From positions 558,001-622,000 of the forward strand of contig NIVC01000283.1 of assembly GCA_002269645.1 (NCBI GenBank): a DNA stretch of 64,000 nt. The letters run 5' to 3'. Position 1 is the stretch's first letter. Every line of letters starts with the position of its first letter. Both the position numbers and the translations under genes were made by a program. Source of the stretch: Macrostomum lignano (lineage: Eukaryota). The notes under the pieces were generated by a model. That model was not told the origin of the DNA, did no database searches, and was given only the letters and a program-made list of their open reading frames with translations. Positions 12,230 through 47,336 of the stretch are shown here, piece by piece.

Positions 12230-13660
12230 GGGGGCCAGCGCCCCATCCCACGGAGCAAGGCGAGAATTCTACCGGCGGGCCCGTCCAGCCGGTCGCCGCC
12301 GCCGAACAGCCGGAGGCGCAGAGAGTCGCCCCGGGGGCAGCGGCGAAGGACGTGGTCGACCGTGTCGAGCGCGCCGCAGTCAGGGCAGGAGGCGTCTTCG
12401 TTCGTTGATGCCGAGGCGGAGGCGGGAGGCCCCGCACAGGGGGCTGACGCCAGCTCTGAGCTGATTTATGGCGACGTGCTCGCGGCGGTTACGGGAATGC
12501 ATGGGCCGGAGGGGAGAGCCCAGAATGCGGGCATCCAAGGCGCGGCGGTCGCGGCGGATGGCCGCACGGGCTGACGCAAGGCTAATAGGCACGTCGACCT
12601 GGGGCAGCCCGGCAGCCTCGGCGGCGGCGCGGTCAGCAGCGGTATTGCTGGCAATGTCAGCGTGGCCCGGGACCCAGCAGAACAGAAAGTCGGAGCGCCC
12701 GGCGGACTCGGTGATGGTCTGCCAGCAGGCCGCAACGGTGGCGTTCGTCTGGCCGGCGGGTCCCTGCTCCAGAGCGGTCAGAGCACTGAGGCTGTCGGTC
12801 AGGACCGCTATGCTGGGAGGAGGGGCTGGGCGCTCGCGGATGCAGTGGGCCAGGGTGGCGTGGATCGCGGCAAGCTCGGCCTGGAAGCTGCTGCACAGGC
12901 GGCCGGCCGCGACGCGGATGGTAGAGGTGGAGTTATCGCTGAAGGTGATGACGGCTGCGCCGCCGCCGTTGGCCGTGCCGCTTTCGGCGGAGCCGTCGGT
13001 CCAGGCAATGGCGTGAAACTCTTCGGCGCGCGCGATGCCCGCAGCTGCGGCTGCGGCCCGGAGAGTGGCGGGGGCGTCTCTGCGAACACTGCAAGCCTGG
13101 AGGTCGAAACCGACGTGTCCCTCGCTGTAGTCAAGCCAGGGAGCGAGGCGGGGGCTGCGCTCGCGGTCGGAGGTATGCAGCGTGGTGGCGCAGATCGGAA
13201 GCCCTTGCGCGGCGTGACGCCAACATCCGCGGAAAGGGCGTGACCGATCAAGTTCGAAGCGAGTGTCGTCGATTGCTCCAGCAACGGCGGCGTCGTCCTC
13301 GAAACTCCGGCACTTGAGGCGTGGGCGAATAGCACGCATGGCGGTGAGGTACGCTGGGCAATCGTGCGGGAGCCTGGCGATCCGCTCGAACAGGTTAACG
13401 GCGTGCTTGATGGCGACGGTGCTGATCGGTGGGGGGTCGGCGAGACGGAGAGACAAGTGGTTGGGCGTCGTGCTGCAGCAGCCGGTGATGAGCCGCGCAC
13501 AGATCGCCTGTTGGCTCTCAATGCTGCGCCGGGTGCTCGGGGAGGCACCGTTGATCCATACGGCACCGCCGTAGTCAGCGCAGGCCCGAATGGTGCTGCG
13601 GTGGGCCAGGGCGCTGAGGGGCGCTGCGGCGTTGGGCCATCCGACGGCGCACCTCGGTTC
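12230..13660 (-). mobile_element. 3' fragment of a non-LTR retrotransposon (I/ingi-like): RT thumb, RNase H and C-terminal CCHC-like motif
   Basis: ORF 12380-13456: AWTDGS, SSFQAELAAI, VLTDSLSAL, WVPGHADIASNTAAD (RNase H D-E-D-D). Upstream thumb-like RACADYGGAVW...QAICARLITG; downstream CPDCGALDTVDHVLRRC. Confidence 0.85.
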
Positions 13661-14565: not shown

Positions 14566-15283
14566 AAAATTAGTAACGATTTATTTGTTCATTTATATTC
14601 AACATTAAGACTAAAAACGGGTCGATAAAAGTCAGAAATGTATATAAATTAACAGTAGATTGTACAGTCCGACGGAGCGCTCACAGAGTTGCAATGAGGG
14701 CTTCAAGTACTTTTAGTCTGTACTCATTTGAGCATGTATGGATGGTGGAAAACTTTTTATCTATTTGGCTGTCACAGCATTCTTTGCATATCATCAGGTG
14801 GTCGTGCACGGCCGACATCTTTTGCCTATGTTCTCTACTTCTCATGTACAGGTGTCGGGTAGTTTCACCTATGTAGGTGATACTCTGGTCACCAGAGCAT
14901 TGAAATTGGTAAACGACACCTGCCCGTAAGGAGCTGGGAACGCGGCATTTCAAATTCCTAACAAATTGACCGATTTTCTCGCAACGGAAAGTGACCATGA
15001 GCTTCACATTTAAATACTTATTAAACGCTTTGATGAGGTTCTTTTTAAAATGAACAGAAGCAGGCCCATAGAAAAGAATGGAAATATGGGTGTAATCAGT
15101 CGTCAGGTCTTTCTGTTCTTCATTATTCTGTATATTGTTCGGATTCCTGACTTTACCATCAATGAATTTCCTAATTTGGTAATCGAGGAACCGTTTCGGG
15201 TAGTTTTTTTTGGAAAAATAGGTGCTAATCGAGCAAATTTCTTCGTGGAAACTAGTCCAGGTGCTACAGATTTCGTGGAGCAT
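14521..15283 (-). mobile_element. Penelope-like element, 3' part (end of RT thumb, GIY-YIG endonuclease, 3' UTR)
   Basis: GVVYQFQCSG..TYIGETTRHLYMRSREH..SAVHDHL..KVLEALI in ORF 14681-15382; truncated at the Polinton TSD. Confidence 0.9.
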
Positions 15284-15629
15284 AGTAGTAGGTAAAAAGA
15301 CGCTTCTAGACCCAGAACCCCTATTTAACATGCTGATTTGAAGGGCTAGTGGGGGGACACGAGGGGGTACTAAAAAACACATCTAAATACCCTTTACCCC
15401 CCTTAAACACACTACCTCCCACTACCTCCCATTAACACCACCAACTCACACAAATCACACAATATTCACCCATATTCCCAATAACACACCCTATCACAAC
15501 CAAACAATCCCCTCGCGTCCCCCCATTAATAGCCCTTCAAATCATCATTTTCAATAGGTCTGATCTAGAAGCGTCTTTTTACCTACTACTACTTTATAAC
15601 CCCAGGCCGCGCCGCAGGCGCGTAGGGTC
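15284..15629 (+). repeat. Left terminal inverted repeat (346 bp)
   Basis: Reverse complement of 33495-33840; the only differences I found are two homopolymer lengths. Confidence 0.97.
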
Positions 15630-15646
15630 TTTTTCTGTTACTAAAA

Positions 15647-15961
15647 ATGAACCGCGTTTACACCTTTTCAGTTAGTGATACTTTTGAGACTGTTGCTAAA
15701 AATTCAGAGATAATAAAACAACATATTCTGAATGGAATAATTGATGAAGTTTATTTAAAATATGATGACAAAACAGAACTAAAACTTTATCCGCTAGATT
15801 TGGATGGGATGTATGATCTAGAACAAGAGGGTGAGTTAATATTTCAACTTGGAGATTATTTAAATTCAGACGATTGGGAGGTTCGTTCAGACGATTCCAA
15901 CTCAACAAATAGCTCATATGAAACTAGTGATTCAGAGAGCAAAATTGAAATTTTTATGTAA
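15647..15961 (+). CDS. Polinton hypothetical protein (104 aa), paralog of the next ORF
   Basis: ORF with TAAAAATG start; shares the IIDEVY..(K/I)(L/I)YPL motif with 15965-16195. Confidence 0.7.
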   Translation: MNRVYTFSVSDTFETVAKNSEIIKQHILNGIIDEVYLKYDDKTELKLYPLDLDGMYDLEQEGELIFQLGDYLNSDDWEVRSDDSNSTNSSYETSDSESKIEIFM

Positions 15962-15964
15962 AAA

Positions 15965-16195
15965 ATGAAATTAGATAACAGACCCTTCTTTTCAATAACT
16001 GAATCAACCCAAACAATATTCAACGCACTTGATTCAATAAAAAAATTAATAAAGTATAAAATAATCGATGAAGTATATATATATCCAGATATAAAGATAT
16101 ATCCGCTTGAAATTGGAGAATTAGATTATATTTGGGATAAGGGGGAGCAAAGTCTTCTTTTAGCACAATGTTTAAATTGCGAAAAAAATAGTTAA
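15965..16195 (+). CDS. Polinton hypothetical protein (76 aa)
   Basis: Stop-start junction TAAAAAATG with the previous ORF; paralogous motif. Confidence 0.7.
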   Translation: MKLDNRPFFSITESTQTIFNALDSIKKLIKYKIIDEVYIYPDIKIYPLEIGELDYIWDKGEQSLLLAQCLNCEKNS

Positions 16196-16198
16196 AAA

Positions 16199-16423
16199 AT
16201 GAACTATTATTCTGTAACAGAAACAACAATTATTGTTAAAAATATATTTAAAAAAATGAAGGTAAATTATTCCTATATCGGAAATGTGCCAATTAATGAA
16301 CTTAATGATAATTTAAGTTTGATAACTGTTGAACAAATGTCAATAATAATATTAGTAACTATAATAGTAATAATATTGTTTTTATTTGTTATAAAAAATT
16401 TACTACCTTGTTGCCTTAAGTAA
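16199..16423 (+). CDS. Small protein with a C-terminal transmembrane helix (74 aa)
   Basis: Hydrophobic IIILVTIIVIILFLFVI followed by K..PCC; N-terminus YYSVTET resembles the two preceding ORFs. Confidence 0.6.
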   Translation: MNYYSVTETTIIVKNIFKKMKVNYSYIGNVPINELNDNLSLITVEQMSIIILVTIIVIILFLFVIKNLLPCCLK

Positions 16424-18011
16424 CGGATTGAAATGAAACCGGCATTAGCTGGTTTTCATAAAATGAGCCCAATATTTCTTCACCATCCTTATCAGCAATG
16501 ATATAGGTTGTGGGATTTGTATTTAAAACTTTACTGATAGTAAATTTCTCACTTATTTTCCAATATCCTTTTCTTCCCTTTTCAAACTTATCTTTCCATT
16601 TATAGATATAAACAGAATCACCAACTTTAAAACCTTTAGTTTTCTTTTTTTCAAAATCTCCAAAAGTAACCTTAACATTTTCAGGATTGTTATAAGCTTG
16701 TTGAGGAGTCATCTTTATAGCTGAATGATATGAATTGTTATAATCTTTTACGACGTCTGGTAATATTTTTACCCACTTTTGGTTACCATTAAGACTAAAC
16801 TGAAACCATAATTTCTTACCTAAAGTTCTATTAAATCTTTCTATTAATGCGTTTTTACTCTCTCCATAAATAGAATAAATTTTATTAATATACTCCCCAT
16901 TCGCGTCCTTTTTCCTTTCTTGTCCTTTTTCAAAATGATACAATTTATACATGTGAGGATTGTAAAATTCTTTTCCTTCGTCAACACACAACCGTTCGCT
17001 TTTTTCTCCAAGACTTCTAAAAGCAGCAGCAACCACCTCTCCCTTTTTGGATTTTAAAGGAATAGCCCACGCGTAGCGAGTAAAACCATCTAATATTGTT
17101 AAAATATATTTATATCCTTTATCATTTGGCATCGACATTAAATCAGCATACCAAATTTCATTCTTTTTGAAGTTCATGATTTTTCTATAAAATTTAGGTT
17201 TTCGGTATTCTTTATGAAGAACCTTAGCCTTATCATAACTTAGCCCACTACCACTTAATAACAAACATTCGACACAATTATTACCATGTTGGTTGTAATT
17301 AATTCCTAAACCAAATTTAACTTTAGATTGTAGAATTTTTTTAACCATCCACCTAGTTAATCTCTGGCCTACTGATAAGCCTTGTAAGTTATCTAATCCT
17401 TGAATCATTTTTTGATCGGCTTCATGTTTTAATCTTAACGCTTCTTCGGGAGGGTTCTTGTCAGCATCTCTATATGCTAAGTCGTGATAGTATGCTAACC
17501 AATCAATCCCATTTATTGGAATTGAATCAGATTTTGGAGTATTGTCAGGATTTAATCTTAAATCCAGTCTAGTCCCAGGTAGTTTACCCTCAATCTTTCG
17601 AATGAGGCTGGAGCACACCTTAAGCGGCGATGATTACCGCCCATCTCCGTCTGCTCTCTGAACCTTCTCCTTATATTTAAAATACTTAGGAGCTTGGCTG
17701 CGCATTGCCACCATGTCTTCAAGCTTTTTACCATTGGGAACAGGAGTTACCTGTGTTCCTTCAGAAGATTTCTCAACTGAAGTGGTACTTGAAGTTGTAT
17801 GACGGGTTTCACGCAATTTGGAGATGTTGCCACTAATAGTGACTAGCAGTAGCTTTGCTTCTACCACTCAGGCCACGGGATAACCTGCAAACGAGTACCC
17901 TGGAATGTGTAATTCATTTGTATACCTACCAGTAGTAAAGATTGGCGGTAAGCTTGTTAATCCTTTTTGAATATCCAACAAGCCTCCTTCAAACACTAAT
18001 TGATTGCTCAT
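16416..18011 (-). CDS. INT: Parvovirus-type phospholipase A2 domain fused to a retroviral-type DDE integrase; two exons (18011-17883, 17579-16416), 430 aa after splicing
   Basis: Spliced product reads ..ELHIPGYSFAG|PGTRLDLRL..PINGIDWLAYYHDLAY (YxxxGPG calcium loop and HDxxY). Integrase motifs: WYADL, CVDEGKEF, IERFNRTL. Confidence 0.93.
17580..17882 (-). ncRNA. Group I self-splicing intron (IC1-like, 303 nt, no internal homing endonuclease ORF)
   Basis: P1 CAGGU/GCCUG with U.G at the 5' splice site; P3 CAUCUCC/GGAGAUG; P4 UGCGUG/UGCGCA; P5abc with A-rich bulge and GAAA L5b; P6/P6a; P7 GAGAGCA/UGCUCC; P8; J8/7 GCUUAAGGUG; P9 with GAAA loop; P10 with the 3' exon. Removal restores the ORF and the GPG motif. 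Confidence 0.93.
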
Positions 18012-18496
18012 TTTTAATCTTTAAAAAACACGTTTCTATCAGTTTAGTAATTTCCAAATATTGATCACCATATAAAAAATTTAAAGCAAAATCCCCAGTT
18101 AACAATGTAACTCCATTATCAAATACCTTTTGTACGGGGGGCTTTAGTAGTATTATTAATGCAAATATAATATAACTCAAATTCAGGATTAACATTTTTA
18201 AATTCTAATAACTTTTGAATATTTCTAAATCGACTCGATGAATTATCTGTGTTATCAGAAGATTTTAACTCTAACGCAATTTTTCTTTCAGTATGAATTA
18301 AATCAATTTTCTTAATTTTTTCAAAACCAAAATGTTCAATAGCTAATAATTCATAAAGATATCCTAGCCTCATTTGAATTGTTTTAATACGGTTTGCAAT
18401 TATTAAATCATCTTGAAATATCTTATTTAGTATTCTGTCAGAACCTACCTTATCATAAATAGGTTTACAAAGACATTCATTTATCGTATTATCCAT
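17989..18496 (-). CDS. Restriction-endonuclease-like PD-(D/E)xK nuclease (about 168 aa), with one +1 frameshift near 18143
   Basis: GYLYE...IDLIHTERKIALELKSSDNTDNSSS. ORFs 18119-18496 and 17989-18195 join at ACTAAAGCCCCCC. Confidence 0.65.
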
Positions 18497-18517
18497 TTTT
18501 ATAAAAAATAAATTTAA

Positions 18518-19186
18518 TTAAACACCCGTATGTCCAGCAGCTTTCGCGGCAGCTAAAACAAGTTTTCGCGGAGTTTTAAATCCTTCACCAACAGCCGGCT
18601 TGTTATTTATAGAATCAACAATCCTTTTATACAAGTTGGTATTTTTAACAGCTCCTACTCCTAAATCATCATAAAAAATTTTAGCACTTACTAATTCATC
18701 CCTAGTATAAAAATCAGGGTTAAACTTAACCCTAGGGTTAGTAATAATTCTATATGCTCCGCCCAATTCTCTATATAAATCATTTCGATTTTTATTAACT
18801 CGACCAATTCGGTAATTATCATTATCTAACTCCTCTATTGCAATGCTTCGTGGGACATTCGTAAATTGTTCAACTCCATCCCTTTCTGCACGCCTAATCT
18901 CTGCAAGTCTCAATAGCACTTGATCAACATCATAAGTAGGCGGCTCATCTAAAATTTCATCCTCTTTTGGCTCGGTATTCTTAGCAATTTTTTCAAGAAG
19001 GTCTTTATCTGTTTTTTCTAGTTCACTAAGTTTGCCCGTAATAGGATTAACAAAAGGGGCAGCAAATCTTTCGCCAGCGAGTTGTATTCCTAACTTTCTT
19101 TTTTGTAAATTTCTAACAAAATCAGAATATTTTTGCTTTTCTTTATAAATTGCTAACTCTCCATCAACGTCCATAAATTGACTCAT
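18518..19186 (-). CDS. Conserved Polinton structural-module protein (PZ-like), 222 aa
   Basis: FVNPITGKL near the N-terminus and C-terminal GEG..LVLAAAKAAGHTGV resemble a recurrent Polinton ORF; assignment from memory. Confidence 0.5.
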   Translation of the reverse strand: MSQFMDVDGELAIYKEKQKYSDFVRNLQKRKLGIQLAGERFAAPFVNPITGKLSELEKTDKDLLEKIAKNTEPKEDEILDEPPTYDVDQVLLRLAEIRRAERDGVEQFTNVPRSIAIEELDNDNYRIGRVNKNRNDLYRELGGAYRIITNPRVKFNPDFYTRDELVSAKIFYDDLGVGAVKNTNLYKRIVDSINNKPAVGEGFKTPRKLVLAAAKAAGHTGV

Positions 19187-19220
19187 TTTTTAACATAAAA
19201 AACTTTTTTAACTTAAAAAA

Positions 19221-20702
19221 ATGGCTGAAACAAAAACCATATGGAGTGATAAATTTCATTTTAAAAAGCACCGGCAGTATATTAATGAGATCAGGGCAAG
19301 AGATTTAAATTATACCCTACCAACAAGTGATAATTCAAACAATTTTACTACGGGAACGGTAACTTTTGACGTTGGGGCAAGCGACAGCGTTTTAGATATG
19401 AAAAACGCGTTTTTCCGCGTTAGATGGTTGTATACCAGAAACGATGGAACTGCTCTTGCAGCCGGTGATATCCCAGATCGTTCTGGAATTATTATAGAAA
19501 ATGATTGGTTTTATAAATGTTTTTCCCAAGCTCAACTAACTGTTAATGGAGCCGAGGTTGAGACATCAACAAACCCAGCAGAGATTAATGGAGTTTTGAA
19601 ACATTTAAATTATACTTATTTATCAAAACAAGTTGGTGATAGTGTTGGGTGGATGCCTGATAAGGGTAATGGACAAGCAGTAGTTTTCCCTAATGTACAA
19701 AATGCAGCCGGCGCAGATACCGCAGCCCTTATAGCTTATCTTAATACCAATATAGTTCCAGTTGTAACCACCATGACTAACACAAAAGATATTAATACCG
19801 GTTTTATAGATCGTCAGAATAAATTCCCAGTAGCGGTTTTAACCACAGCAAGCGCATATGAGCAAGACTTTTCAATCTTTCCACTATTTGGGTTCTTCTC
19901 ACCAAATCGGGTATGGAAAGGATTAAAATTTGGGGTACAGTTGCAAATATCTGGTGGATATCAGCCTAGGATACTTTATGGAACCTCAATTTCAACCGAT
20001 ATCGCAATTCGTATAGCATCAATTCAATTAGTCGTACCAAAACTAGAGCTAACGGCGCCTCTTTTAGCACATGTTAATAAGCAGATAATGGTTGATCAAG
20101 AAATATTTTATTTGAATCGGCGCCACTTTATGCGAACCATTAACAACAATCAGGATTCATTTCAGTGGCAGATAACGATATCAAAACGTCGGGTGAGATA
20201 TATTTTTGTTTGGTTTAAAATAACAAATAGAAGGAGTAAAAGAGCAAACGGGGATTTATATTGGCTTCAATCAGAGGATGTAGCAGCTCAGGCAGCCACT
20301 GCAACCGACAACGCGGTTTCAGCTATTAACGAGTTTAATGTTCAGAATATCCGCCTGCAGGTTGATGATCAATATTATCCTGTTAAAGAGCCCTTAAATC
20401 TAAACATAGCAAATAATAATGTTAATGATTTTATAAAATATTATCAAGATTATACCAAAAATGAAGCGTATGCTGTTCCTCAGTACACACCCACGGAGTT
20501 TCTAAACATTCACCCAGTAGTTGTTTTTGATCTAACTGCACAGAAAGAAAATGTAGCCAATGTTGGTTTGAATTATATGTTAGAGATTAATAAAACCGGT
20601 AATCAGGCACTAGACGCCCACGTATTGTTTCTAGAGGAATATATATCAATTGCTAAAGCCGACGGAACCGTTGTTCGGGATGCGCCCGTAGATAAAGATT
20701 AG
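19221..20702 (+). CDS. PY: Double jelly-roll major capsid protein (493 aa)
   Basis: Size and motifs: FSQAQLTVNGAEVE, RYIFVWF, NIRLQVDDQYYP, EFLNIHPVVVFDL; adjacent to the ATPase and penton genes. Confidence 0.88.
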   Translation: MAETKTIWSDKFHFKKHRQYINEIRARDLNYTLPTSDNSNNFTTGTVTFDVGASDSVLDMKNAFFRVRWLYTRNDGTALAAGDIPDRSGIIIENDWFYKCFSQAQLTVNGAEVETSTNPAEINGVLKHLNYTYLSKQVGDSVGWMPDKGNGQAVVFPNVQNAAGADTAALIAYLNTNIVPVVTTMTNTKDINTGFIDRQNKFPVAVLTTASAYEQDFSIFPLFGFFSPNRVWKGLKFGVQLQISGGYQPRILYGTSISTDIAIRIASIQLVVPKLELTAPLLAHVNKQIMVDQEIFYLNRRHFMRTINNNQDSFQWQITISKRRVRYIFVWFKITNRRSKRANGDLYWLQSEDVAAQAATATDNAVSAINEFNVQNIRLQVDDQYYPVKEPLNLNIANNNVNDFIKYYQDYTKNEAYAVPQYTPTEFLNIHPVVVFDLTAQKENVANVGLNYMLEINKTGNQALDAHVLFLEEYISIAKADGTVVRDAPVDKD

Positions 20703-20722
20703 TTAAATTATTTACTTAAAAA

Positions 20723-21484
20723 ATGGTAAAAGCAAAACATTATAAAATATTTCCAAATGATCCTTTTCTTTGTTTAGTAATTGGTGGATCGGGCAAAGGA
20801 AAAACCCACTTTGTTTATGACTTGTTAACAACCGATGGAATGTTAGACTATAATAATTTAATAATTTATACTAACAAACCTAGAATAAAATATTATGAAT
20901 TTCTTAAACACGGATTAAAAAACAAATTAAAAAAAGATATCTTATTTAGAATGTTAAGAGCATATGAGCAATATGAGGACGATGATGAACCAAGATTTAA
21001 ACTAACAGACATTGAGGATTTATGTAAAAAAACGGCAGAAGATCCAGAAAATATAGACAACAATTCTCCAACAATTACAATATCAAACAGATTAACTTAT
21101 GACAAAATTCCTAAATATGATAAAACACTAATTATTTTTGACGATTGTATTAATGACGGAGATCAAGAATTGCAAAAAGAAATTTTTGTTAGTGGTAGAG
21201 GAGATGGAATTGGAGCTTTTTATCTTACTCAATCCTTTAGAGAATTAGAATCGATTATAAAAAAGAATGCTAGCTGTTGTGTAATGTTTGATTTAGATGA
21301 CTATGATTTACAAAATATACACGCTAGATTTAATCCGGGGTTGGATACAAAACCATTTAAAAGTATGTGTAAAAAAATTTGGGATGATAGTCAATACAAA
21401 CACATATATGTCAACCCTAGGTTAGAAAGAAGAAATCGAATCTTAACAAATTTGATAAAAGAAGATAATGAGGACGAGGAGTAA
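20723..21484 (+). CDS. ATP: A32/FtsK-like DNA packaging ATPase (253 aa)
   Basis: Walker A GGSGKGKT, Walker B LIIFDD, downstream GR..YLTQS. Confidence 0.93.
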   Translation: MVKAKHYKIFPNDPFLCLVIGGSGKGKTHFVYDLLTTDGMLDYNNLIIYTNKPRIKYYEFLKHGLKNKLKKDILFRMLRAYEQYEDDDEPRFKLTDIEDLCKKTAEDPENIDNNSPTITISNRLTYDKIPKYDKTLIIFDDCINDGDQELQKEIFVSGRGDGIGAFYLTQSFRELESIIKKNASCCVMFDLDDYDLQNIHARFNPGLDTKPFKSMCKKIWDDSQYKHIYVNPRLERRNRILTNLIKEDNEDEE

Positions 21485-21538
21485 AATCTCAAATCTTTGG
21501 TTCTCTTGCCGCCGATGCTATTATTCCCCACTATAAAA

Positions 21539-22324
21539 ATGGCAACAAATTTAGACACTATAAAACAATTGGTAGATCGAACTAATTCAAAATTTAGCAC
21601 AACCTTACAGTTTATAATGACAAGCAGCGAGCAACGGATTCAATTGCGCGATCCGTTACAACTAGATCAAAGCCTAAGTTATCAAATAGGTTTGATACTA
21701 TTTTCGGTTTTTAACATGCCTCAATTAATTAATGCAACAAATAATCAATTTAGATATTCTAAAGATTCCGGAGCCAATTGGACAACTTTTAGCGTTAATC
21801 CAGGGGCGTATAGCTATACCGATTTGAATGCTTACATAGAAGGAGAATTAACGGATAATGGTGATTGGGTAGCTGGTGCGATTGTTATAGGTGTTGATTT
21901 ACCGTCGGGAAGATTCACCCTATCACTAGGATCAGGATATCAGGTTGATTTCACAATTGCAAACTCACTCAGAACCATACTTGGATTTAATTCCCGAATA
22001 GTTACCGCATCAAGCACCGGTGATACCGTGGGAAACATTGAGGGCGGAGTCAATACAATTAATATAACAACCGACATATCAAACGGCGGTTATATAACAG
22101 ATAATAATGGGGTTTTGGTTCAACGTGGAATTATTTATTCAATCCCGTTTCTTGCTGTTCCAATTGGAGAGAAAATGATTGTTGCACCCCAAACCCCAAT
22201 ATATTATCCTTTAAATCAATATAGCGTTCAATCAATTTATATTAGGATCGTAGATGAAAGCGATAGATTAATAAGTTTTGGTGGTCAATCAATAACAGTA
22301 ATTTTACGTATAAAACAGGTTTAA
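21539..22324 (+). CDS. PX: Minor capsid protein (penton, single jelly roll)
   Basis: PLQLD..YQIGL, INATNNQFRY, LRTILGF, PQTPIYYPL, IRIVDESDRLISFGG; ATG chosen at TATAAAAATG. Confidence 0.85.
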   Translation: MATNLDTIKQLVDRTNSKFSTTLQFIMTSSEQRIQLRDPLQLDQSLSYQIGLILFSVFNMPQLINATNNQFRYSKDSGANWTTFSVNPGAYSYTDLNAYIEGELTDNGDWVAGAIVIGVDLPSGRFTLSLGSGYQVDFTIANSLRTILGFNSRIVTASSTGDTVGNIEGGVNTINITTDISNGGYITDNNGVLVQRGIIYSIPFLAVPIGEKMIVAPQTPIYYPLNQYSVQSIYIRIVDESDRLISFGGQSITVILRIKQV

Positions 22325-22334
22325 TATAGTAAAA

Positions 22335-33494: not shown

Positions 33495-33840
33495 GACCCT
33501 ACGCGCCTGCGGCGCGGCCTGGGGTTATAAAGTAGTAGTAGGTAAAAAGACGCTTCTAGATCAGACCTATTGAAAATGATGATTTGAAGGGCTATTAATG
33601 GGGGACGCGAGGGGATTGTTTGGTTGTGATAGGGTGTGTTATTGGGAATATGGGTGAATATTGTGTGATTTGTGTGAGTTGGTGGTGTTAATGGGAGGTA
33701 GTGGGAGGTAGTGTGTTTAAGGGGGGTAAAGGGTATTTAGATGTGTTTTTTTAGTACCCCCTCGTGTCCCCCCACTAGCCCTTCAAATCAGCATGTTAAA
33801 TAGGGGTTCTGGGTCTAGAAGCGTCTTTTTACCTACTACT
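33495..33840 (-). repeat. Right terminal inverted repeat (346 bp)
   Basis: Mirror of 15284-15629; followed by TSD GAGCAT. Confidence 0.97.
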
Positions 33841-34240
33841 GAGCATACAACGCAGCAGGCCCACTTTCCACTAGGTTGGGCAGAGAGCATTGAAGTTAAG
33901 CAGAAGACCAGTGTAGGTGGGTTTACGATAAACTTTGGTGGACACAATCGTTTTCAACATTAATCTGAATGTCTAGAAAAGGTATAGATTTCCCATCTCC
34001 TTCAGCAGTGAATTTTATGTTCGGATGAGTGCTGTTGAAAATGTCTAAGAATCGGCTATAGTCAGTCCCTTCGTTGAAAACCAAAAGTGTCATCAACATA
34101 TCTCTTATAGAATTTGGGGCCGCATCACTCTTCATCAATTCCTCTTCCCAATGAGCCAGACAAAGATTGGGAAGGTGGGGGCTAAAGGGCTCCCCATGGC
34201 ACAGCCGTCAATCTGCCGGTGAAGAATTTGAGTTGGATCT
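33841..34240 (-). mobile_element. Penelope-like element, RT part (5'-truncated, degenerate), continuing into 14521-15283
   Basis: QIDGCAMGSPLAP, FNSTHPNIKFTAE..IPFLD, VYRKPTYTG. Removing the Polinton and one TSD copy gives LLRCML-HEICSTWTSFHEE in frame. Confidence 0.9.
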
Positions 34241-45103: not shown

Positions 45104-47336
45104 ATGCCACCTAAGAGAAGGCGCACTGAAGGAGACAGTAATATGTCCCGTCTATTCAAAAATTGGCTTACTGAAAATTTGAGCGCTTAACAGACTGTTC
45201 AAGCTCCACATGTGACAGTTTCTGCTCCATTTGAGGCTCCATCCGTACCGGATGAGAGTGTGGATACACCCACACTGGACCCTTCCTCCGACTCCGAGCT
45301 CCGGCAGGTAAGCGTAACATCTCAGTCTGCATGTGCATGTTTGATAACTTCTCACTTTGCCTCTCACTCAACCTCGCTCTACTTCTCACCCTGCTTCTTT
45401 ACAGGGCGCAATGTGCGACCATGTTCACTTTGAAGAAAATGGAGTCGAGGACGACATGGACTACCCAGAGAGTGAAGATGACGACGATCAGGCGAATCTG
45501 AGGCCCAGTATGGAGAGTCTGAACGAGGAGCTTCTGATGTTTTTCGTCCGATTCAACATATCACATCGAGCCATGCAATTTTTGCTCAATGCGCTGTACA
45601 GCCGTGGGATGCCCGTCGTCAAAACCCTGCACCGACTGACGCATGCGACAGTCGGTGGATCAGAGAGCAGAGTAGGCAAAATCATGAAGTACAGCATGGG
45701 AATGGGCAACTTCGCCTACCTTGGCATCCAGAGTAACCTTGCCTTTCTGCTGCAGACGGGCAAGCTGAAGTTTACAAAGCCGACGTCGATAACTACCGCA
45801 GATGGGAGGACTGGTTACGAGATCGACGTTCATTTTGGCATCGACGGAATGCCGATATACTATTTAGCGGAATTCGCCAAGGAGTTGGATGCCTTCATGA
45901 CTGATTTCATCACCGTAGAATCCGTTCCAATCCGCATCAGACGAGTTACTTTCGTCTGTGACTCGCCGGCTCGATCGTACATCATGTCTACCATGTCTCA
46001 CAACGCTTTCCATGGGTGTCCGTACTGCAGGGCCGTTGCGAAAACGGTGGACCGTCGGATTGTGTACCCCACTGTGACCGGAGAAAGTCGGAGTGCCGAG
46101 GTCTACCGGGAAAACAGGTAAGAAGTCAGTATCTACTCTACCCACCTCTACTCTGCCTCAATCAACATCGAATTCTAACCCCTCAGTCTCTCTCACTCTA
46201 CCTCTAACTCCTCACTCACCCCTCACTCAACCTCTACCCCTGCCCCTAACTCCTCACTCTACTTATTATTCTGCCTATCACTCTACCTTTAATTCTATCC
46301 TTCCCTCTACCCTTCCCTCTACCTAACTCCTCACTCTACCTATCACTCTAATTCTCCCACCTACCTTTCCACAGAGAGTCCAACCAGAAGGCAGTGCCAA
46401 GCCCTCTGCTCTCACTGCCAAACTTGACGATGTTGGACGCCTTCCCTCCGGAAACAATGCACCTTCTCTTCTTGGGTATAGCTCGTCGGTTATTTCATTT
46501 CCTGTTCGCAGAAGACAACGGGCGGCGCTGTAAACTCTGTCCCGATGCAATCGCCACTCTATCTGATAAGATTGAGTCACATGCGTCTTACATGCCGTCG
46601 AACTTTCAGCGACGCCCGCGAAGAATTGACAGAGAATTGGGACATTTCAAGGCCACTGAGTTTCGCACGTTTGTTCTCTATGTGGGCCCGTACTTCTTTA
46701 TGAAATTCCTACTAGAAATTTTGTACAAGCATTTTCTGCTATTCCACTTTGCCTGCTATATATTCTGCTCTGATCTCGCCCCTGACTCACCTTCTGTCCC
46801 TCGCTGAGGCTGCTATGCGCCTTTTTGTGTTCGACGCCGCCGAATTGTATGGCGACACCATAATGACCTTTAATACTCATGTGTTGCTTCACCTGGCTGA
46901 TGCTGCTAGGCTACGTGGCAATGTATTTGGATTCTCCGCCTTTCCATTTGAAAACTACTTGTCGCATCTGAAAAGGCGCTTACGCAATACAAGGTTTGTG
47001 TCGTCTCATTTGCTTAATCAAATGCTTTCTCTTCGCGATTTGCTCACTAGTAATCCTATTATTTCTGTTGAATATTCGGTAAGGACTCCTAACAATTGCT
47101 GTATAATTGACAGTAAAGTTGTACGCATTACATGCATCTCTGGCTCTATCGTTTCAGGTGTCGTTTTAATTTTTAACAAAGAATTGAACAACACTCCTTA
47201 CACTTCATCCCTACTCGGTATTGGTTTTTTATCAAGAAATTCGCTCTGTAATTTCTGGTTTTCCGTAAAAAAGTGTTTCCTTTTTCCTCGTAATGGAAAC
47301 ATCTGGCTTGTTATCCCATTAACCGAAACGGAGTGA
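45104..47336 (+). mobile_element. CMC/EnSpm(CACTA)-type transposase gene with introns and a frameshift
   Basis: FVCDSPARSY..SHNAFHGCPYC; ETMHLLFLG; FQRRPRRI..FKATEFRTF; NTHVLLHL..FSAFPFENY. GT-AG introns near 45308-45403 and 46118-46373. Confidence 0.85.

Follow-up and report, generated by a model that had tools for sequence, protein, structure and literature searches.

Group I introns and a restriction-type nuclease gene in animal Polintons depleted of GGNCC

The PLA2-integrase gene and its group I intron

We analysed a stretch of 64,000 nucleotides of contig NIVC01000283.1 (positions 558,001 to 622,000, hereafter the window), which carries a Polinton whose PLA2-integrase gene, on the minus strand, is interrupted by a 303-nt insert (17882-17580). 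The principal features are, with ORF standing for open reading frame:

15284..33840, no strand: Polinton of 18,557 bp, recognized by its terminal inverted repeats (TIRs), target-site duplication (TSD) and core genes; GGNCC-free on both strands
16416..17579, minus strand: exon 2 of the PLA2-integrase gene, 387 codons from PGT, with the rest of the PLA2-like domain and an rve integrase match
17580..17882, minus strand: IC1-like group I intron, 303 nt, ORF-less, last base (17580) A; assigned from RF00028 and covariation
17883..18011, minus strand: exon 1 of the PLA2-integrase gene, ATG at 18011, 43 codons, ending in GYSFAG; its last base is the U of the P1 U.G pair
18119..18496, minus strand: free-standing Eco47II-family PD-(D/E)xK nuclease ORF, frameshifted near its 3' end; homologous coding continues to about 17,990

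Read without splicing, the gene meets a stop four codons into the insert, the early in-frame stop of the original prediction, and full-length PLA2-integrase thus requires removal of the insert. ORF reading confirmed the predicted coordinates and the split at GYSFAG|PGT, and joining the exons gives 43 + 387 = 430 amino acids. The insertion point, GGT|CC, separates the Gly codon from the Pro codon in the calcium loop of PLA2, and an internal-Met ORF of 330 amino acids contains the entire integrase. A natural protein insertion between G and PG is ruled out, because homologues are contiguous at this point (38 of the 120 homologous proteins listed read GPG at the loop) and because intronless alleles, for which a search had been proposed, occur in the same genome (22 junctions in the same assembly).

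Judged by its sequence, the insert is a group I intron, as predicted. The sole Rfam match in the window is to RF00028 (17589-17892; 71.3 bits against a gathering level of 50, E 4e-16), and all the helices named in the prediction were located, the internal guide sequence and P3 at the coordinates given there:

17869..17873, minus strand: internal guide sequence, pairing with exon positions 17887-17883 (P1)
17880-17877 with exon 2 17576-17573, minus strand: candidate P10, able to pair
17829..17867, minus strand: P2 (17867-17861/17852-17846) and P2.1 (17843-17839/17833-17829), the P2.1 loop being the site of the nuclease ORF in family-B copies
17826-17820/17648-17642, minus strand: P3
17816-17811/17703-17698, minus strand: P4, located with P5
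17794-17717, minus strand: P5abc with A-rich bulge and GAAA loop
within 17642..17826, minus strand: P6/P6a with an 11-nt-receptor-like motif
17658-17652/17615-17610, minus strand: P7 with an intact G-C guanosine-binding pair
17641-17626, minus strand: P8
17581..17609, minus strand: P9.0 (17609-17608/17582-17581) and P9 with GAAA loop

The drawn structure is supported by compensatory changes. Aligning 32 distinct copies (sources: this genome and a single unrelated viral contig; structure drawn from the window-type sequence) shows 35 of 81 pairs changed on both sides and 97.3% of cells paired, against 3-11 double-change pairs for slid partners and 12.8 for shuffles; the copies are related, so that the shuffle counts overstate significance, while the slid control preserves relatedness. 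P8, poorly aligned, is excluded from the count and copy L030 from the alignment. Double changes are present in P2, P3, P5b, P5c, P7 and P9, and the core helices P3-P8, with the P3/P7 pseudoknot, are present and supported by covariation (P8 located, not counted). The U.G pair at the 5' splice site in P1 is found in all 28 aligned copies that have a 5' end, and the G-C guanosine-binding pair of P7 in 31 of 32. The folding energy of the insert is modest (z -2.58). IC1 introns are recognized by P5abc, P2/P2.1 and the absence of P7.1/P7.2, all of which hold for the insert, and only 8 nt follow P9, leaving a 3' domain of P9.0 and P9. Because this domain is compact and has no P9.1/P9.2, the intron is IC1-like rather than the full IC1 that had been proposed.

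Introns occupy at least 151 junctions in the assembly, in three types, against 22 intronless junctions (3 of family A and 19 of family B); host genes stand in two to four near-identical places, so that these counts are of places in the assembly and not of independent insertions. Type A, that of the window, is about 300 nt long and ORF-less, and its 103 3' ends read A in 81 cases, G in 22 and C or T in none (the 3'-end listing takes the best 100 of 107 matches in one search, 96 of which are Polinton ends). Type B, about 880 nt long, sits at the same insertion site in a second Polinton family; all of its 24 ends are G, and the 20 Rfam matches fetched out of 28 were all of this type, with no rDNA intron among them. 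Type C (24 copies, 41-43 bits with RF00028) has the type A 5' site and nearly identical P2 and P5abc with a different catalytic core (L081:309-634, L085), which suggests that introns have exchanged domains; the type C 3' site with the best support would remove two loop residues from the protein. A fourth, group-I-like intron of 302 nt, ending in G, occupies the same GGT|CC junction in an IMG/VR contig (L104:3280-3581), where the upstream slot holds a GIY-YIG gene. This intron has no Rfam match even at E<=1; surveys relying on Rfam will undercount such introns.

Removal by the spliceosome, or a degenerate insertion in place of a working ribozyme, would accord with a GT one base upstream of the 5' boundary and with the CAG in which some copies end. 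By inspection, however, no nearby GT-AG pair restores the frame, and the catalytic core and its compensatory changes are kept across the four intron types, which makes this explanation very improbable.

Traces of such introns extend to other datasets, in which 14 predicted proteins either have their start at PGT or immediately ahead of it, or continue across the 3' end of the intron (the evidence here is of proteins only). Two protein clusters of another dataset, P0126 and P0007, hold about 30 copies each of an intron-tailed nuclease and of a PLA2-integrase; of the latter, some start in the gene calls at the codon preceding PGT and others are contiguous, implying the same intron polymorphism in another organism. 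A 5'-truncated intron remnant lies behind a different short ORF at L087:430-645, with exon 1 missing. A metagenome scan with the PLA2 part yielded one degraded intronless relative. A viral scan with a single PLA2-integrase protein gave no match, and two intron-motif scans of viral contigs gave 0 matches; Rfam at gathering level found nothing in 8 of 10 giant-virus nuclease loci scanned, nor in 15 of 29 viral integrase loci; and a custom intron model run on 49 sources found only known types (window-type and L104 introns match it by construction).

The P7 of type A (window 17656-17611) is unusual: two of its pairs are swapped against the consensus and J8/7 carries a linked change, and the terminal-A allele is confined to this background. 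Hairpin inserts of 17-45 nt and related sequence recur in the P5, P5c/P5a and P6b loops (L005, L015, L018, L064), and short hairpin inserts move between intron types A and B.

The last base of the window intron, overlooked in the original prediction, is A rather than the near-universal G. A terminal G is required for the canonical second splicing step. Its replacement by A lowers the odds of activity, not group I membership, and exceptions are published: the coral ND5-717 intron, which ends without G, gives ligated exons in vivo at low efficiency, with more than 70% unspliced, in a paper that terms the terminal G essential (PMC6545197).

We compared terminal-A and terminal-G copies in a selection test and in trees (36 copies, with 20 duplicate loci and L029, L030, L046 and L076, which have a stop or indel near the junction, removed). 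Codons 1-40 of exon 2, upstream of the first internal Met, have a pN/pS of 0.05 in terminal-A (8 distinct) and terminal-G (7 distinct) copies alike, and exon 1 has about 0.3 in both. The P-G-T codons are retained at 103 of 103 family-A 3' ends, in several synonymous haplotypes, and P9.0 is perfect in every terminal-A copy and imperfect in 11 of the 22 terminal-G copies. These observations bear on the proposal that the window copy and the terminal-A majority are splicing-defective parasites, in which the intron still shields the site and PLA2-integrase comes in trans from terminal-G or intronless copies, or the integrase alone from the internal Met. The need for a terminal G, the whole integrase within the 330-residue ORF, the frameshift in the adjacent nuclease of the window, and the 24 type-C copies and the 5'-truncated ones, which also look unable to yield a normal loop, all speak for it. 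However, family-A ends that are not G are always A, the P-G-T codons persist, selection acts upstream of the internal Met, P9.0 is better preserved with A than with G, and the window element has matching TIRs and TSD, so that we find this proposal doubtful; it concerns the splicing step only and is compatible with the nuclease model set out below.

Alternative 3' splice sites at a nearby G were considered, and the commonest terminal-A haplotype has none in frame that spares P9 and the loop. No RNA run is on record as containing the stretch, and among the joints listed for four sequencing runs, available as assembled contigs only, none crosses the intron. We consider it very likely that the intron family splices and probable that the terminal-A allele of the window still does so, at lower efficiency, with a second step that may be slow or need help.

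The nuclease and the loss of GGNCC

The free-standing nuclease of the window lies upstream of exon 1 and is 69% identical to the nuclease encoded by the type B intron, where a 228-codon ORF has its start within the P2.1 loop and extends through the core; the free-standing gene is open in other family-A copies. The family-B protein matches Pfam RE_Eco47II (PF09553) with 31.1 bits against a cut-off of 25.9, the window fragment scores 22 bits, below the cut-off, and the match is found in 13 of 13 aligned nuclease homologues (E<0.01). The AlphaFold2 model of the nuclease has a pLDDT of 92.9, and its best predicted fold match is EcoO109I (Z 9.7, root-mean-square deviation 3.8, 161 residues aligned; next match Z 6.0), with which the nuclease, of about 160 residues, aligns over its whole length, leaving no added DNA-binding domain. 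EcoO109I cleaves RG^GNCCY (PMC3089450), and Eco47II homologues have been assigned GGNCC 'without certainty' (PMC10305163). Searches of PDB sequences and of NCBIfam, a PADLOC search with the Polinton nuclease, and tblastn against plasmids gave no match.

A restriction-modification (R-M) system includes a cognate methyltransferase, and no methylase match was obtained among the 18 ORFs of at least 90 amino acids in the element. In contrast, a C5 methylase adjoins nine of ten giant-virus homologues of the nuclease (L092-L101), which are more distant relatives, and the two best plasmid relatives of the giant-virus methylase that were inspected both adjoin annotated Eco47II-family nucleases. As the partner of the intron, the nuclease points to giant viruses as a more likely source than the rDNA implied by the 'rDNA-type ribozyme' of the original prediction. 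Among close homologues from other datasets, 10 of 17 carry tails that are translations of group I core sequence, two frames being used. When the tree of 37 proteins is rooted at its midpoint, the free-standing forms and type B are sister groups within a clade of 12 intron-linked proteins (95/90). This suggests, as far as the midpoint root can be relied on, that the nuclease gene left the intron to become free-standing. The layout is that of a homing endonuclease, a gene in or beside the intron that destroys its site, the site here being assigned by family. The upstream slot (L026-L079, L082, L083) is variable, with an Eco47II-like nuclease in some copies and in most an HNH-like ORF, judged by eye and with no Pfam match, which is also present in both intronless family-A copies read.

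Every Gly-Pro codon pair reads GGNCC, and so does the insertion site. Within the 18,557 bp of the element GGNCC is absent, against 18.2-18.6 occurrences expected, and is the most depleted of 48 motifs, while the host flanks have 102 against 122 expected. The depletion is seen in protein and outside it: Gly-Pro occurs 0 times in 5,031 residues (9.0 expected; Pro-Gly occurs 8 times), and the other reading frames have 0 sites where 5.6 are expected given the proteins and codon use. Family-A loci have a single site in 106 kb (redundant), a family-B copy none in 7.8 kb (8.3 expected), and a 5.2-kb intronless copy only the junction itself. L104, an independent case with a different intron at the same site, has 0 against 5.8, whereas 29 IMG/VR integrase loci taken as controls have 291 against 328, and control loci L105-L119 have 63 Gly-Pro against 70. 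Outside the loop, the 60 closest PLA2-integrase homologues, which are not independent of one another, have 3 Gly-Pro against 44 expected. CANTG and CTNAG are likewise under-represented in 15284-33840, less completely than GGNCC. Neither the restriction-type nuclease nor the element-wide absence of its putative motif, the main point here, appeared in the original prediction. Taken together, nuclease family and depletion point to a short site rather than a rare one of 14-40 bp.

From these data we propose that in one Polinton clade a mobile group I intron probably coexists with a captured type II restriction endonuclease that has no methylase. The intron lies at GGT|CC between the loop Gly and Pro codons, an Eco47II-family nuclease is encoded inside it (family B) or directly upstream of exon 1 (family A), and the element has lost every other GGNCC and thereby every Gly-Pro dipeptide. 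The nuclease would cut GGNCC or a near-variant, and the element would survive because the one site forced on it by protein function is interrupted at the DNA level and becomes whole only when the RNA is spliced. Where several Polintons share a cell, the nuclease would cut intronless relatives at the junction, which either removes a competitor or leads to repair from an intron-bearing copy, that is, homing; ORF-less introns such as that of the window would ride on nuclease from neighbours. In family B, unspliced RNA could yield the nuclease by re-initiation after the short exon-1 ORF, and spliced RNA the PLA2-integrase.

Ordinary homing offers a different account, in which the nuclease has a long rare junction site like that of I-Ssp6803I, the loss of GGNCC is a relic or is due to an outside enzyme (such as a giant-virus R-M system met in co-infection), and the intron is plainly selfish and hides one site incidentally. 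It would avoid the problem of host toxicity; giant viruses do possess the complete nuclease-methylase pair, several viral loci without the nuclease avoid GGNCC too, codons near the junction vary strongly at synonymous positions, the pattern that evasion of a long-site enzyme should leave, and long-site PD-(D/E)xK homing endonucleases exist (PMC3424549). However, a protein of about 160 residues that aligns with EcoO109I over its full length, with no DNA-binding domain added, a motif loss that is complete rather than partial in both families, and intron-occupied junctions with many different flanking codons argue against it, and we regard it as unlikely.

Several observations weigh against the short-site proposal itself. 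Firstly, both cleavage and splicing are steps that we infer, and exon selection could come by recombination from terminal-G copies, because terminal A and G are interleaved on both the intron and the exon trees (6 changes each). Secondly, although the exclusion pattern speaks for the proposal, with the nuclease no more than 1.5 kb away from 57 of 151 intron junctions and from 0 of 22 intronless ones, the contrast is inflated by 24 built-in family-B linkages, related copies and duplicated contigs; the nuclease is found at only 33 of 127 family-A/C junctions, most of which have another ORF in the slot, and intronless family-A alleles number only 3. Thirdly, GGNCC is low in loci where no nuclease is in view (L104, 0 against 5.8; L113, 3 against 11.2; L121, 2 against 15.4; L122, 0 against 3.2; L125, 2 against 11.1), Gly-Pro stands at 33 against 69 in L120-L132, CCNGG is partly depleted in the window element (11 against 28), and nine of ten giant-virus loci, with low expected counts, have no clear GGNCC depletion. 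Fourthly, an intact site survives in 22 intronless alleles; 20 of these have GGCCC in a flanking context that GGWCC or RGGNCCY specificity would pass over, so that recognition may in truth be more restricted than the depletion implies. Lastly, host DNA has 2.2 sites per kb for a 5-bp cutter, so as long as the element stays integrated its nuclease must be kept silent or confined; as guesses at how the host tolerates it we name silencing in that state and use restricted to the lytic phase. One giant-virus locus, L101, does show strong GGNCC depletion (36 against 130).

The short-site proposal can be extended to a fuller picture, to which we give slightly better than even credence: an animal Polinton clade practising restriction without modification, in which a GGNCC-type enzyme was taken from giant-virus R-M pairs, the methylase dropped and the site purged genome-wide, with Gly-Pro given up; self-splicing introns would act as a DNA-level shield for the one Gly-Pro that is needed, the enzyme would double as a homing nuclease and a means of attack on host DNA or that of rival viruses, and hundreds of catalytic introns, the majority with a terminal A, would be kept in a bilaterian nuclear genome. 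If short-site cleavage holds, it constitutes a protection scheme for which we found no counterpart in the literature, and a new route for a virus to distinguish its own DNA from that of a rival without methylation. Cleavage of a 5-bp site would turn the textbook homing strategy of a long rare site into its opposite, a short site with genome-wide avoidance, would make the intron protective of its host virus, and would imply selection powerful enough to clear a proteome of a dipeptide; the nuclease reading also predicts DNA damage upon reactivation of such elements. With at least 151 virus-delivered copies in a protein gene of animal chromosomes, ribozyme splicing of a nuclear animal mRNA is directly testable, and the natural A- and G-ending alleles of one intron make a ready system for the study of splicing without a terminal G.

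The Polinton and its animal host

The Polinton carrier of the original prediction holds, with TIRs, a 6-bp TSD, a protein-primed family B polymerase, the ATPase and the integrase all present. The inverted repeats are about 350 bp long with AGTAGT termini, beginning with AG as in Polintons:

15284..15629, plus strand: left TIR, beginning AGTAGT; 6-bp target duplication at 15278-15283
33495..33840, minus strand: right TIR; 6-bp target duplication at 33841-33846
27212..30436, minus strand: protein-primed-type family B DNA polymerase with a YADTDS motif, 37-40% identical to polymerases of IMG/VR integrase loci
20723..21484, plus strand: A32-like packaging ATPase
19221..22983, plus strand: genes probably for capsid, penton and protease, labelled by location and by resemblance to related elements, with no family match

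The polymerase contains an inserted endonuclease VII-like (HNH-type) domain (residues 236-296). A tandem-repeat ORF (23141-23533) and a gene for a protein with an F5/8 type C (discoidin) domain (23653-25038) are enclosed by a 44-nt inverted pair at 23322/25828. In the flanks, RNase H (12380-13339) and DUF4218 (46815-47336) ORFs are remnants of other transposons.

The animal nuclear context was likewise borne out. The 764-Mb assembly contains 86 Wnt exon matches and Prospero domains, the latter not known outside bilaterians; the host is an animal and probably a bilaterian, on the evidence of these genes. Published introns of Polinton-like viruses all come from protists, which could suggest that the elements belong to a protist or fungal contaminant or symbiont rather than to animal chromosomes. 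However, copies occur at over 150 locations, four of them on Wnt-bearing contigs and one of these 23 kb from a Wnt gene, the window copy is bordered by a target duplication and embedded in 45 kb of flanking sequence, and the 20 sequencing runs of 7 studies that contain the stretch bear a single organism label, so that contamination has hardly any probability left.

Comparison with known systems

The original prediction left open whether Polinton-borne introns had been reported. They have, in protists: RF00028 introns of about 300-380 nt occur in protein genes of integrated Polinton-like viruses (PMC12220804), those of Rhodomonas lacustris, Paulinella and Desmodesmus, as in the window. There they are described with a short gene upstream of the capsid gene and, in the available text, no identified nuclease (PMC12220804), whereas the window family has an animal host, a PLA2-integrase gene, an intron-borne or adjacent restriction-type nuclease and element-wide site loss. 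Novelty therefore does not lie in a Polinton-borne intron as such but, apparently, in the animal host and the link to a nuclease. The available portions of the adintovirus paper PMC8502044, of PMC11296320, of 10.1101/2023.08.22.554363 and of 10.64898/2026.10.13.758929 describe no such intron, the last suggesting R-M systems in these viruses, and the literature covered, which leaves subscription papers and supplements aside, contains no animal Polinton intron and no shield made of a restriction enzyme and an intron.

Nuclear introns of group I are reported to be restricted to the rRNA genes that microbial eukaryotes possess, with His-Cys enzymes and 15-20-bp sites (PMC3679873), and the group I introns of animals (only placozoans, corals and sponges) to be mostly mitochondrial (PMC11835236, a 2025 database; PMC8146996). 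The window family shares with nuclear rDNA IC1 introns the A-rich bulge of P5abc, P2/P2.1, the GAAA loop and receptor, the nuclear location and a nuclease in a peripheral loop; unlike them, it lies in an mRNA, has no P9.1/P9.2 and is paired with a PD-(D/E)xK enzyme of a 5-bp-site family. Among group I introns, the restriction-enzyme fold is also used by the homing endonucleases I-Ssp6803I, with a 17-bp target, and I-Bth0305I (PMC3424549), which differ in being bacterial or phage enzymes with long targets and of other Pfam families. With type II R-M systems of the Eco47II family and EcoO109I, the Polinton nuclease shares sequence family, fold and the catalytic D...ELK motif; its Eco47II-family viral relatives are still paired with methylases, whereas the element has none and is apparently protected by site loss and the intron.

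Target masking in competition between related viruses was proposed for the polr2a and polr2b introns of Bodo saltans virus (PMC5871332), which are likewise viral mRNA introns with nuclease-bearing and ORF-less copies, but belong to a cytoplasmic giant virus of a protist, with HNH and GIY-YIG enzymes and no genome-wide elimination of a short site. The family-A layout, a free nuclease gene adjoining an ORF-less intron, resembles the collaborative homing of cyanophage psbA (as cited in PMC11296320); in the Polintons, by contrast, both layouts occur in one genome, and free-standing nucleases branch from within the intron-encoded ones on the midpoint-rooted tree, which inverts the proposed order. 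Finally, the hexacoral mitochondrial intron ND5-717 has A for its terminal G, as in the window (PMC6545197; PMC8146996); it is fixed, obligatory and mitochondrial, whereas in the Polintons terminal A and G segregate among viral copies.

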